From assembly GCA_031426695.1 (NCBI GenBank), contig JASJPM010000007.1:383115-447114 (forward strand): a stretch of DNA of 64,000 nt, in the 5' to 3' direction. A program made the position numbers and the translations under genes. A model generated the notes under the pieces. That model had not been told where the DNA came from and searched no databases. It saw nothing but the letters and a program-made list of their open reading frames with translations. Origin of the DNA: Caulobacter sp. Lineage in GTDB: Bacteria; Pseudomonadota; Alphaproteobacteria; Caulobacterales; Caulobacteraceae. Shown here in pieces: positions 12,202 through 15,480 of the stretch; position 1 is the first letter of the stretch; each line of letters starts with the position of its first letter.

Positions 12202-13404
12202 TCAGTAGATCAGGAACGGCCGGCGGGACTCTTCCCACGCCGCCTCGTCCGGCGTGGTGATCGCGTCCAGGTCGCCCGGCGCCGCTTCGCTGTCGTCGAC
12301 CCATTCGCGCAGGCCGGGGCCGCCGTTGATAACATCGATGGCCAGCTTGTCGAACACGTACTCGTAAGGGAAGTCGCGCCACAGGTCGTAGTCGGGCCAG
12401 AGCTTTCGGATCGCCTTGAAGCCCAGCGCCTGCACCCGCCAGGGCTTGAACGCCGTGTGGTCGTAGCTCGGATCCTCGACGTGGACTTGCACGCCGTTGT
12501 TCAGCACCCCGACATGCTTGTGGAAGGTCGGCTGGAACCAGATGTCGCGCAGGCGGCATCCGTTCAGCCACTGCGGGGCCAGCAACCGCATGGTGTCGAT
12601 CACCTTGCGGGCGTTGATGTCCGGCGCGCCGAACAGCTCCAGCGGCCGGGTGGTGCCGCGGCCTTCGCTCAGCGTCGTGCCCTCCAGCATCACCGTGCCG
12701 GCGTAGGCGCGGGCCATCGACAGGTTGGGAGCGTTGGGGCTGGGGTTGATCCAGGCCCGCTCGCCCAGCGGCCAGCCGAAGCCGGGCCCGGCGGCAGGGT
12801 CGTAACCCTCCATCTCGATGACCCGGTACTCGACGTCGAGTTTGTAGTGGTCGATGAACCAGCGGCCGAGTTCGCCCAGGGTCAGGCCATGGCGCATCGG
12901 CATCGGTCCGGCGCCGACGAAGCTTTCCCAGCCCGGCAGCAGGGTCAGCCCCTCGACCGGCCGGCCGGCGGGGTTGGGGCGGTCCAGAACCCAGACTTCC
13001 TTGCCGTGCTCGGCGGCCGCTTCCAGCACATAGAGCAGCGTGGTGATGAAGGTGTAGATGCGGCAGCCCAGGTCCTGCATGTCGACCAACAGCACATCGA
13101 ACGTGCCCATCGCCTGGCCGGTCGGTCGCCGCGTCTCGCCGTAGAGGCTGAACACCGGGAACCCATGGACCGGGTCGGTGAAGTCCGGCGACTCCATCAT
13201 GTTGTCCTGCAGATCGCCGCGCATGCCGTGCTGCGGCCCGAAGGCGGCGCTGACGGTGATGTCCGGGCAGGCGATCAGCGCGTCGATCGAGTGGGTCAGG
13301 TCGGCCGTCACCGAGGCCGGATGGGCCAGCAGCGCCACGCGCTTGCCGGCCAGCGCCTTGCGCAGCTCGGGCTCGGAGATCAGGCGGTCGATGCCGAACT
13401 TCAT
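12202..13404 (-). CDS. DUF1343 / NamZ-like exo-beta-N-acetylmuramidase
   Basis: FGPQHGMRG, DMQDLGCRIYTF, LDRPNP, WINPSPN, EGRGTTRP. Confidence 0.88.
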   Translation of the reverse strand: MKFGIDRLISEPELRKALAGKRVALLAHPASVTADLTHSIDALIACPDITVSAAFGPQHGMRGDLQDNMMESPDFTDPVHGFPVFSLYGETRRPTGQAMGTFDVLLVDMQDLGCRIYTFITTLLYVLEAAAEHGKEVWVLDRPNPAGRPVEGLTLLPGWESFVGAGPMPMRHGLTLGELGRWFIDHYKLDVEYRVIEMEGYDPAAGPGFGWPLGERAWINPSPNAPNLSMARAYAGTVMLEGTTLSEGRGTTRPLELFGAPDINARKVIDTMRLLAPQWLNGCRLRDIWFQPTFHKHVGVLNNGVQVHVEDPSYDHTAFKPWRVQALGFKAIRKLWPDYDLWRDFPYEYVFDKLAIDVINGGPGLREWVDDSEAAPGDLDAITTPDEAAWEESRRPFLIY

Positions 13405-13949
13405 GCGGACTCCAGCGGCGGCAGGTCGAGCGCGAACGCGTCGGGATGGTGGAAGTCAGGCTTACCCGGCGCATGGGCCAGCGCCCAGTAGGACTTGGCC
13501 CCGGAGGCCTCCTCGATGACGGCGGAGAGGCCGAGGCGCCAGGGTCGGTCCACAGGCAGGCCCAGGCGGTCGAGGTCCAGCGTCGCGGCCAGGGTGAAGG
13601 TCTTACCGTCACCGCCGCGCGCCAGGTCGCGCAGCTCCACACCCGCGTGCGGCTCCATCCCCAGCCGGTACCCCGAGAAGCCATAGGCCGCCCATTGCCC
13701 GGAGGGCGACAGGTTGAACTCGTGGTAACCGCCCCGTCCGTCGGCGATGAAGGCCTCGAAGCAGGTGGAGCGCCAAAGCTCGTCGGCGCGGGACCGGCGC
13801 ACCCAGGCGGGAAGAACCAGCCGGCCGATGTCGCCCGTCCCCTCGAAGCGCAGCGCTAAACCCTGAGGCCGAGGGCGCGTGACCTCAACCTCGATCCGGT
13901 CGAGCGCCTCGCACGGCGTGTCGGGGTGTGGCGTCAGGCGCACGGTCAT
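13401..13949 (-). CDS. DOMON-like domain protein
   Basis: LWRSTCFEAF, YHEFNLSPSGQWAAYGFSGYR, YWALAH..GKPDFHHPDAF. Start ATG 13949. Confidence 0.8.
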   Translation of the reverse strand: MTVRLTPHPDTPCEALDRIEVEVTRPRPQGLALRFEGTGDIGRLVLPAWVRRSRADELWRSTCFEAFIADGRGGYHEFNLSPSGQWAAYGFSGYRLGMEPHAGVELRDLARGGDGKTFTLAATLDLDRLGLPVDRPWRLGLSAVIEEASGAKSYWALAHAPGKPDFHHPDAFALDLPPLESA

Positions 13950-14006
13950 GACCCCTTCGATAGCGGCCGGTTGACGCCGGTCAACCGTGCAGGCATCTGA
14001 CCGCCC

Positions 14007-14057
14007 ATGATCGCCAAGGCCGCCCTCGCCGCCCTCTATTACGCCCGCTCGTTCTGA
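14007..14057 (+). CDS. Candidate leader peptide [16 protein letters not shown] upstream of tyrS
   Basis: ATG14007...TAT TAC...TGA14057. TTGACG at 13971-13976 is spaced so that the start site would fall at or next to the ATG; a hairpin covers the stop codon. Confidence 0.45.
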
Positions 14058-14166
14058 CGAGCGGCGTTGCGATCGCATGCCGCCCACCTTCCGGCGGCAT
14101 GTGACTCATCTGATCCAGCACACGGCCGCCGGTCCCCTTTCAGGAGACCTGACGATGCTGTTGACC

Positions 14167-14196
14167 TTGAACCCCTCCCCGCCCGGCATGCTAGAG
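14167..14196 (+). promoter_or_regulatory. Candidate proximal sigma70 promoter of tyrS
   Basis: TTGAAC-17 nt-GCTAGAG, followed by the RBS AAGGAGA (14207-14213). Confidence 0.5.
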
Positions 14197-14223
14197 CCGT
14201 CCGCGCAAGGAGACTCCGTACCG

Positions 14224-15480
14224 ATGACCGCCGACGCCGCCTTCAAGTCCACCTTCCTGCGCACGCTCCGGGACCGGGGATTCATCCACCAGATCACCCA
14301 TCCGGATGAGCTGGACGAGGCCTGCGCGACGGGGACCATCGCCGCCTACATCGGCTTTGACGCCACCGCGCCAAGCCTGCACGTCGGCAGCCTGATCCAG
14401 ATCATGATGCTGCGCCGCCTGCAGCAAGCCGGCCACAAGCCGATCGTCCTGATGGGCGGCGGCACCACCAAGGTCGGCGATCCCACCGGCAAGGACGAGT
14501 CGCGCAAGCTGCTCAGCGAAGCCGACATCCAGGCCAACATCGCCTCGATCAAGACGGTGTTCGCCAAGTTCCTGACCTTCGGCGACGGGCCCACCGACGC
14601 GGTCATGGTCGACAACGACGAATGGCTGAGCAAGTTCGGCTACGTCCAGTTCCTGCGCGACTACGGTGTGCACTTCACGGTCAACCGCATGCTGGCCTTC
14701 GACTCGGTCAAGCAGCGGCTCGAGCGCGAACAGCCGATGACCTTCCTCGAGTTCAACTACATGCTGATGCAGTCGGTGGACTTCCTGGAGCTGTCGCGGT
14801 CGCGCAGCTGCCTGCTGCAGATGGGCGGGTCCGACCAGTGGGGCAACATCCTGAACGGGGTGGAGCTGATCCGCCGCGTCGATCACAAGCCGGCCTTCGG
14901 CCTGACGACCCCGCTGCTGTCGACCGCCTCCGGCGCCAAGATGGGCAAGACGGCCCAGGGCGCGGTGTGGCTGAACGCCGACATGCGGTCGCCGTACGAC
15001 TACTGGCAGTTCTGGCGCAACGCCGAGGACGCCGACGTCGGCCGCTTCCTGAAGCTGTTCACCGACATGCCGCTGGACGACGTGGCGCGCTACGAGGCGA
15101 TGCAGGGCGCGGCGATCAACGAGGCCAAGAAGGCCCTGGCCGACGCGGCCACCACCATGCTGCACGGCGCCGAAGCGGCGAAGGCCGCGCGGGACGCCGC
15201 GGAGAAGGCCTTCGAGCAGGGGGCGCTTTCGGCCGACCTGCCGACGGTCGAACTGCCGGCGACATCGGTGCTGGGGGCGACCCTGGCGGCGGTGGCCGTG
15301 GACGCCGGTCTCTGCGCCTCGCGCGGTGAGGCCCGGCGCCTCGCCCAAGGCGGCGGCCTGCGCCTCAACGACGTGCAGGAGGCCAACGGCGACCGCGTGC
15401 TGGCTGAGGGCGATGTCGTGGACGGCGTGATCAAGCTGAGCCAGGGCAAGAAGAAGATCGTGCTGGTCAGGCCGGTCTGA
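14224..15480 (+). CDS. tyrS: Tyrosine--tRNA ligase
   Basis: [15 protein letters not shown] (HIGH), [16 protein letters not shown] (KMSKS) and a C-terminal S4-like domain. Confidence 0.97.

Follow-up and report, generated by a model that had tools for sequence, protein, structure and literature searches.

Our comparative analysis indicates that tyrS in Caulobacteraceae is preceded by a real, conserved and leaderless leader-peptide regulator, which is predicted to respond to tyrosine. We consider it reasonably likely that this element acts as a ribosome-mediated sensor of charged tRNA-Tyr whose signal is relayed to the tyrS ribosome-binding site, and stalled ribosomes probably raise synthetase production when charged tRNA-Tyr is scarce. 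The window, that is, the whole stretch of 64,000 nucleotides analysed here, belongs to a groundwater metagenome genome from an organism known from metagenomes only. Ahead of a gene identified as tyrS by its TIGR00234 match (E = 7e-109), it carries a 16-codon upstream open reading frame (uORF) that runs on the + strand from ATG14007 to the TGA at 14055-14057 and has TAT (14037-39) and TAC (14040-42) as codons 11 and 12. A sequence-only reading of this DNA had picked out both the frame with its tandem TAT TAC and a TTGACG -35 box at 13971, and both are present as described, the box lying 36 nt before the ATG; the interval from the uORF stop to the conventional tyrS ATG (14224), which it had put at 167 nt, is 166 nt. 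Scanning the leader for consensus sigma-70 promoters and intrinsic terminators returned neither, and the -10 region of this upstream promoter (P1), which is weak in the window, is therefore assigned from its position only. The features of the window leader are as follows.

13971-13976, + strand: -35 box TTGACG of P1, 36 nt 5' of the uORF ATG
13994-14000, + strand: weak -10 region CATCTGA, placed by position
14007-14057, + strand: leader ORF including its stop codon, predicted to be leaderless; homologue of C. crescentus CCNA_03958
14037-14042, + strand: putative sensor codons TAT TAC, codons 11-12 (Tyr in 49/51 and 51/51 relatives)
14009-14014, + strand: 5' strand of P0, GAUCGC, containing the G of the AUG; partner 14069-14074
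14041-14067, + strand: hairpin 1 (regions 1 and 2), -18.7 kcal/mol, with covariation in relatives
14069-14074, + strand: 3' strand of P0, GCGAUC; partner 14009-14014
14075-14102, + strand: hairpin 2 (regions 3 and 4), 10 bp, -23.1 kcal/mol, no U-tract 3' of the stem
14061-14083, + strand: alternative 2:3 hairpin, GCGGCGU (14061-67) with AUGCCGC (14077-83), -14.1 kcal/mol
14091-14098, + strand: region 4, CCGGCGGC, including GGCGGC at 14093-98
14125-14132, + strand: region 5, GCCGCCGG, a perfect complement of region 4 CCGGCGGC that overlaps the anti-SD arm
14131-14149, + strand: hairpin 3, anti-SD GGUCCCCU with Shine-Dalgarno (SD) sequence AGGAGACC; SD core 14142-46
14155-15480, + strand: tyrS, long form of 441 aa, starting 8 nt past the buried SD; the conventional ATG at 14224 gives 418 aa
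14190-14196, + strand: box GCTAGAG (family consensus GTGCTAnAC), with TTGAAC upstream at 14167-72

Some genomes of the window's genus have a tyrS locus that matches that of C. crescentus NA1000, where a primary transcription start at 2088068 (+) has been assigned to a "NEW" coding sequence, CCNA_03958, with the motif TTGACTGCC... located at -36 and RNA-seq coverage rising at the start from 31 to 462 per base (Zhou et al. 2015, PMC4287350). In the companion annotation, anmK ends at 2088006 and tyrS extends from 2088215 to 2089540, encoding 441 aa, with LC-MS verification recorded for the start codon (Schrader et al. 2014, PMC4117421). At a locus near-identical to that of NA1000 (L014), the uORF ATG lies 146 nt upstream of the long tyrS ATG, and RNA contigs of C. 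crescentus-like organisms contain one additional base between the two. Since 146 + 1 = 147 nt equals 2088215 minus 2088068, the published NA1000 start coincides with the first base of the homologous ATG, which makes this mRNA leaderless, as had been proposed for the window from its letters. By homology, given the equal 36-nt spacing between TTGAC and ATG, the window transcript is expected to be leaderless as well. The same annotation skips one ORF identifier between anmK and tyrS, and likewise at the trpS leader, and the new coding sequences of that study were called by ribosome profiling (PMC4117421). The proposal that the uORF is coding is supported by its homologue, and we infer that the uORF is also translated in the window's own organism. 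The sequence-only reading had further stated that no Tyr leader was known for alphaproteobacterial tyrS: this holds insofar as our literature search found no paper mentioning CCNA_03958 or a tyrS leader in these bacteria, and needs correcting insofar as the uORF was already annotated in NA1000, as CCNA_03958, with its function undescribed. The number of 5'-end reads in NA1000 was low for P1 (1-27) relative to an internal 5' end at 2088259 (1100-2900; PMC4287350), suggesting that the share of P1 may be small in normal growth.

The regions upstream of tyrS were compared in 102 genomes of the family (27 genera) and in 44 outside it, the latter comprising 16 from five other families of the order and 28 from the class's other families. 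In 63 of the 102 family genomes, a short ORF whose tail carries Tyr-Tyr begins about 36 nt past a TTGAC box; five further ones have a one-Tyr or His-Tyr variant at the same position, and none of the 44 outside genomes has this arrangement upstream of tyrS. About one third of the family genomes are without the leader, and a few retain a single Tyr. Lack of conservation of the uORF or its Tyr-Tyr pair would have refuted the sequence-only reading, and both are kept in at least 15 genera of the family. The spacing from TTGAC to ATG is 35-37 nt in relatives and 36 nt in the window; the -10 sequence in relatives is TAGCTA or TATCCA, with 6 nt between it and the uORF ATG. Among 63 distinct homologous uORF sequences, 51 are 16 codons long, and these have Tyr at codon 11 in 49 cases, Tyr at codon 12 in all 51 and Arg at codon 13 in 41, with codons 4-10 variable (no residue above 40%). 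TAT serves as the first Tyr codon in 47 of the 51, although it is the rarer one genome-wide, with 24% of Tyr codons as counted in 363 long ORFs of the window's genome. Synonymous exchange of TAT and TAC occurs at both Tyr codons among relatives, and a 15-nt insertion within the uORF of one genome (L013) is in frame. To judge from these alignments, the Tyr-Tyr pattern lies beyond chance. Because Tyr-Tyr is invariant while the rest drifts, selection on the peptide is confined to the amino acid charged by the downstream enzyme and to stem-forming codons.

This pattern bears on two other explanations. The leader might be translated and structured and yet not sense tyrosine, acting instead on mRNA stability, setting a fixed low level of translation or yielding a peptide with a role of its own, with Tyr-Tyr retained for the peptide or as RNA sequence. 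The sensor would comprise just two codons, and some lineages have His-Tyr or a single Tyr, both of which would suit such a leader. We nevertheless judge it improbable, given that the peptide is invariant only where it carries the amino acid cognate to the downstream gene, that Trp occupies the same place in the trpS leader, and that the sensor codons adjoin the 5' arm of hairpin 1, which a stalled ribosome must melt; the synonymous TAT/TAC exchange speaks against a pure RNA-sequence constraint. Direct binding of a factor is the second explanation, either TyrRS on a tRNA-like operator or uncharged tRNA-Tyr reading UAUUAC in the manner of a T-box specifier. Firmicute tyrS T-boxes with a UAC specifier are precedents for this, as is synthetase autoregulation by operator mimicry, for example E. 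coli ThrRS on its tRNA-like operator. A search of Rfam with positions 13700-14500 at E up to 10 gave no T-box or other relevant family, only four weak unrelated matches, the hairpin loops are not conserved and contain no GUA anticodon mimic, and translation is indicated by the reading frame, the fixed 10-codon spacing and the in-frame insertion, as well as by the annotation of CCNA_03958 in a set called by ribosome profiling. We therefore regard direct factor binding as very improbable.

We found the same resting fold of the leader in every lineage, consisting of P0 and hairpins 1, 2 and 3. P0 joins nucleotides 2-9, and with them part of the AUG, to the segment directly 3' of hairpin 1. The 5' arm of hairpin 1 starts in the second Tyr codon in the window, and its predicted burial of the stop codon was seen there, with the stop in the loop; across leaders, this hairpin starts from the last base of that Tyr codon, and the stop codon is held or abutted by it. 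A second stem, first read as 14076-14101, is present as hairpin 2. In hairpin 3, the anti-SD (usually GUCUCCGG) pairs with the SD GGAGAC of the first tyrS start, and the resulting burial of the tyrS ribosome-binding site is present in every lineage, at an opening cost of about 9.7-11 kcal/mol. RNAalifold applied to a MAFFT alignment of the leaders returned no structure, reflecting the fact that the register of hairpin 1 differs between lineages, and per-sequence folds, a gapless sub-alignment and tests of cognate against non-cognate duplexes were used in its place. In the gapless alignment of hairpin 1 (28 distinct sequences, 85.7% paired), four of ten pairs change on both sides, which none of 500 shuffles matched. 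Cognate P0 duplexes averaged -8.65 kcal/mol versus -6.95 kcal/mol for non-cognate ones, a difference reached by 0 of 10,000 permutations, and the compensations include AUGACCG with CGGUCAU and AUGAACGACG with CGUCGUUC. Cognate specificity was likewise found for hairpins 2 and 3 (p < 0.0002 each). The sequence-only reading had noted the lack of a U-tract; we agree, having found none 3' of hairpin 2 in the window, and the 8 nt past hairpin 2 contain a mean of 1.8 U, with four or more in just 4 of 52 lineages. Hairpin 2 is not a canonical terminator. The P0 helix, the SD-burying hairpin 3 (14131-14149), the tyrS start at 14155 and the GCTAGAG box at 14190-96 had been absent from that reading.

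A ribosome whose A site is at a Tyr codon necessarily sits over the 5' arm of hairpin 1. When the stretch under such a stalled ribosome was masked and folding was stopped at the hairpin 2 loop, the 3' arm of hairpin 1 (region 2), now free, paired in nearly every lineage with region 3, which is the 5' arm of hairpin 2. This 2:3 pairing had a mean of -16.7 kcal/mol, compared with -13.0 kcal/mol when the upstream part was shuffled and -15.6 kcal/mol for hairpin 2. In C. crescentus-like leaders, 2:3 (-18.1 kcal/mol) is stronger than hairpin 2 (-9.4 to -11.7 kcal/mol); in the window it is far weaker (-14.1 versus -23.1 kcal/mol), and the relay would there need kinetic, co-transcriptional trapping. 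With region 4 freed, the mean opening cost of the ribosome-binding site fell from 11.1 to 6.7 kcal/mol, and in the window from 12.3 to 5.7 kcal/mol, a drop that arises via pairing of CCGGCGGC (14091-98) with GCCGCCGG (14125-32). The drop exceeded 2 kcal/mol in 43 of 54 lineages, and the real region 4 was more than 1 kcal/mol better than its shuffled version in 37 of the 54 and more than 1 kcal/mol worse in two.

Comparison of cognate with non-cognate partners supported both 2:3 (p = 0.0008) and 4:5 (p < 0.0002), while the control pairings 2:5 (p = 0.46) and 3:6 (p = 0.98) showed no cognate specificity. Direct pairing of region 2 with the anti-SD (2:5) was rejected on this ground. The sequence-only reading had offered GGCGGC in region 4 a choice of partners: the downstream one at 14125 is supported, as the 4:5 pairing, and the GCCGCC copies within the uORF (14019 and 14028) were discarded because they lie in a non-conserved stretch. 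Since 2:3 and 4:5 co-vary between lineages, a relay that opens the ribosome-binding site is suggested, in which the off state would consist of 1:2, 3:4 and 5:6 and the on state of 2:3 and 4:5 with the SD free. The proposed switch of structures finds support in this lineage-specific complementarity of the alternative pairings. In full-length equilibrium folding with a ribosome on Tyr-Tyr, the SD pairing probability hardly changed (0.78 versus 0.76-0.78) and the opening cost went from 9.7 down to 8.5-8.8 kcal/mol, a relief of about 1 kcal/mol; so small an effect of the stalled ribosome at equilibrium counts against the relay and is a point in favour of a leader that does not sense tyrosine.

Under the explanation we favour, the P1 mRNA would begin with the AUG of the 16-codon ORF and a ribosome would load on this 5' end during RNA synthesis. 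With Tyr-tRNA plentiful, the ribosome would reach the stop codon within hairpin 1 and depart, leaving a closed form with the 5' AUG held in P0, hairpins 1 and 2 in place and the SD of the start at 14155 hidden in hairpin 3. With Tyr-tRNA scarce, a ribosome stalled on TAT TAC would occlude the 5' arm of hairpin 1, region 2 would be released to pair with region 3 (the 5' arm of hairpin 2), and region 4, thus free, would pair with region 5 (the anti-SD) and open the ribosome-binding site. Translation of the C-rich tyrS start would probably also shield the transcript from Rho.

The same Tyr-Tyr leader sensor and the same 1:2, 2:3 and 3:4 pairings could instead have transcription termination as their output, with hairpin 2 or the C-rich untranslated leader giving Rho-dependent or factor-assisted termination unless 2:3 forms, and with hairpin 3 merely tuning translation. 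Such an arrangement would fit the topology of trp-type attenuators, in which the stop codon also lies between regions 1 and 2, and the advantage of 2:3 over hairpin 2 in C. crescentus-like leaders, where masking of the ribosome site turns hairpin 2 off with hairpin 3 still closed. In addition, coverage in NA1000 drops from 462 in the leader to 214 right before the second 5' end (PMC4287350). The leader resembles Rho loading sites in composition, with C at 0.39 and G at 0.24 versus 0.34 and 0.34 in tyrS, and C/G exceeds 1.3 in 44 of 49 spacers. Given the C-rich leader and the halved coverage, Rho-dependent termination may be part or all of the output. Changes in mRNA point the same way: in a C. 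crescentus cspC mutant, tyrS was among only five genes up in exponential phase (9.85-fold), and the gene downstream of tyrS was also up, as was DAHP synthase (10.7-fold; PMC4551563). The tyrS mRNA level can therefore change strongly, which counts for the explanation we favour as well, and the cspC data do not identify the inducing signal. The region upstream of the DAHP synthase gene in the window's genome contains no Tyr-rich leader. Against termination as the output, hairpin 2 lacks a U-tract in the window and, by the U counts given above, in nearly all lineages, and both the covariation of region 4 with the anti-SD and the conserved burial of the ribosome-binding site in every lineage would be left unexplained. 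On balance we think it rather unlikely and retain the relay to the ribosome-binding site.

The start codon opened by this relay would be that of an extended TyrRS. ATG 14155 shares its frame with the conventional start (14224) and lies 8 nt after AGGAGAC; an in-frame upstream tyrS start is present in all long-leader relatives, with length differences that are multiples of three, and the 441-aa TyrRS of NA1000 corresponds to the window long form. We accordingly correct the tyrS start in the window to 14155, the most upstream start used. Within the extension lies a box, GTGCTAnAC (window 14190-96), which is retained even in genera that lack the leader; this internal tyrS box is also written GTGCTAGAC. 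It contains the Leu codon CTA, which we take to be rare in a genome this GC-rich. A strong NA1000 5' end, 2088259, lies about 10 nt past the box, and its signal with and without pyrophosphatase treatment was 2855 versus 1880, that is, 1.5-fold (PMC4287350). With a difference of just 1.5-fold, this end could be either a transcription start or a processing site. We think that the box at 14190-96 is probably the -10 element of a second, basal tyrS promoter.

A parallel arrangement was found at trpS, upstream of which the window's genome has TTGTCC-N17-TATCGA-N6-ATG together with the ORF MVLLALLTRRWRGA, whose sole Trp is at codon 11. A short ORF with Trp occurs upstream of trpS in 21 of 30 family loci, the Trp being mostly at codon 10-12 and as a rule within an RRWR motif, and most of the trpS uORFs looked at have a TTGC-type box 35-38 nt upstream. 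That two related synthetase genes, tyrS and trpS, should each have their cognate codon equally far from a 5'-terminal AUG would be difficult to account for unless sensing were codon-specific. No further synthetase leaders, only noise, came out of a simple genome-wide search for short ORFs of the TTGAC-N-ATG type. We tentatively put forward a more specific possibility, that Caulobacteraceae have a distinct design of single-shot, leaderless synthetase sensors with a relay, two TyrRS isoforms and a counterpart at trpS. The sensor codon, codon 11, would lie about one ribosome length from the 5'-terminal AUG, and P0 would shut the AUG once the leader had been transcribed, leaving the first, co-transcriptional ribosome alone to be read out. 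Its stall would trigger the three-hairpin relay (2:3, then 4:5) and open the site of the N-terminally extended TyrRS isoform, while the second promoter inside the extension would supply the ordinary isoform constitutively. If this is true, the codon-11 geometry shared with trpS would mark a family of sensors and not a single case.

To our knowledge, alphaproteobacteria lack T-boxes, and our literature search found no description of how synthetase levels are matched to need in this class and no tyrS leader. The tyrS leader offers a testable answer in the model organism C. crescentus, where the ORF is annotated and unexplained, and the tyrS and trpS leaders jointly suggest a group of leaderless sensors that are read by ribosomes. 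The tyrS leader also illustrates how a leaderless mRNA could be regulated by pairing of its own 5' AUG, and would account for the N-terminal extension of TyrRS in the genus and for the two tyrS 5' ends.

Finally, we compared the tyrS leader with known systems. The T-box of Firmicute tyrS binds tRNA directly, does not require translation and raises tyrS expression when tRNA-Tyr is uncharged; the physiological logic proposed here is equal, and the window leader has no T-box match. Two precedents had been invoked in the sequence-only reading, of which pheST is apt and thrS is not, as E. coli thrS is controlled by a translational operator and has no leader-peptide attenuator. The E. coli pheM leader contains five Phe codons, comes with a 5' UTR and a Shine-Dalgarno sequence of its own, and uses a canonical U-tract terminator. 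As at pheM-pheST, a short ORF with cognate codons precedes a synthetase gene, and stalling, which we infer for tyrS, would report charged tRNA through alternative hairpins; unlike pheM-pheST, the leaderless tyrS transcript carries two Tyr codons, is without a U-tract and has an extra hairpin that sequesters the ribosome-binding site. With the mycobacterial polycysteine attenuators of Canestrari et al. (bioRxiv 10.1101/834739), it shares a leaderless short ORF as first cistron. The mycobacterial system senses cysteine through runs of Cys codons, controls cysteine-metabolism operons and, according to the abstract, has a stalled ribosome that blocks the sequestering structure directly, whereas the tyrS leader would need the relay from 2:3 to 4:5, targets a synthetase and has its 5' AUG paired in the resting fold. 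As in trpL (Yanofsky 1981, cited in PMC4117421), two tandem sensor codons lie in region 1, the stop codon lies between regions 1 and 2, and the 1:2, 2:3 and 3:4 pairings are mutually exclusive; trpL differs in that its 3:4 structure is an intrinsic terminator with a U-tract, that a Shine-Dalgarno sequence lies in the 5' UTR of its transcript and that it involves no ribosome-binding-site hairpin further downstream. The C. crescentus trpS leader (PMC4117421; CCNA_03913 in Zhou et al. 2015) likewise combines a leaderless short ORF with a class I synthetase gene downstream, and its cognate codon is at about position 11. Its RRWR motif contributes a single Trp codon (Trp-Arg-Trp in some cases), and in the window's genome this codon lies in a hairpin loop; the trpS ORF is named as a likely leader peptide in PMC4117421, whereas the tyrS ORF is listed just as a new coding sequence. 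Taken together, the tyrS leader has the upstream short ORF, cognate codons and exclusive pairings of a classical attenuator and lacks its U-tract terminator, and it has the features of translational attenuation, with release of the ribosome-binding site by a stalled ribosome as the predicted part. In mechanism it is closest to pheM-pheST, the mycobacterial leaderless poly-Cys attenuators and the C. crescentus trpS leader.

The tyrS coding region of the window carries a 23-codon extension at its start, which would be lost if the gene were annotated from position 14224. This N-terminal extension is present in all of the relatives that carry a long leader, where its length differences are whole codons, and its start in the window corresponds to the 441-aa start of C. 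crescentus NA1000, which has been verified by LC-MS. The features around the tyrS leader in the window are as follows.

13404-13949, minus strand: 182-aa ORF, lying next to tyrS and divergent from it in the lineage of the window
14155-14223: in-frame, C-rich N-terminal extension of tyrS (23 codons), with a strong Shine-Dalgarno sequence in front
14167-14196: GTGCTAnAC(GCC) box upstream of tyrS, also found in relatives L039-L119

The GTGCTAnAC(GCC) box is kept throughout the Caulobacteraceae, including in genera that have no leader. In short leaders of the leaderless type, the ribosome-binding site is buried by a hairpin whose loop contains the box. About 10 nt downstream of the box, NA1000 has a strong 5' end, for which the +TAP/-TAP ratio is only 1.5. 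The box may be either a promoter -10 element or a processing signal.

The 182-aa ORF has no match in Pfam or NCBIfam. It takes the place of anmK, which is the tyrS neighbour in most relatives, and the leader remains beside tyrS whichever of the two neighbours is present. In one locus of genus g34 (L059), the leader has collapsed, with the P1 promoter and the start of the leader ORF being retained. Here the ORF reads only MIVVR-stop and runs directly into the Shine-Dalgarno sequence (GGAGAC) and the ATG of tyrS. The sensor and the hairpins appear to have been lost by a natural deletion. At another locus (L063), the promoter is all that is retained of the leader.

In an exponential-phase C. crescentus mutant of the cold-shock protein gene cspC, tyrS and the DAHP synthase gene were the two most induced genes, at approximately 10-fold each (PMC4551563). 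A Tyr-rich leader was looked for at the DAHP synthase gene of the window's genome, and none was found.

We additionally observed that trpS of the window's genome has a leaderless leader ORF of its own, with a single Trp at codon 11.

G000 (the window's genome) contig C5, about 491951-491995, outside the window, minus strand: trpS leader ORF MVLLALLTRRWRGA

Short Trp-containing ORFs lie upstream of trpS in 21 of 30 family loci (L150-L179). They usually carry an RRWR motif, and their Trp is mostly at codons 10-12. The one trpS leader ORF that we found in the literature is that of C. crescentus (Schrader 2014, PMC4117421).
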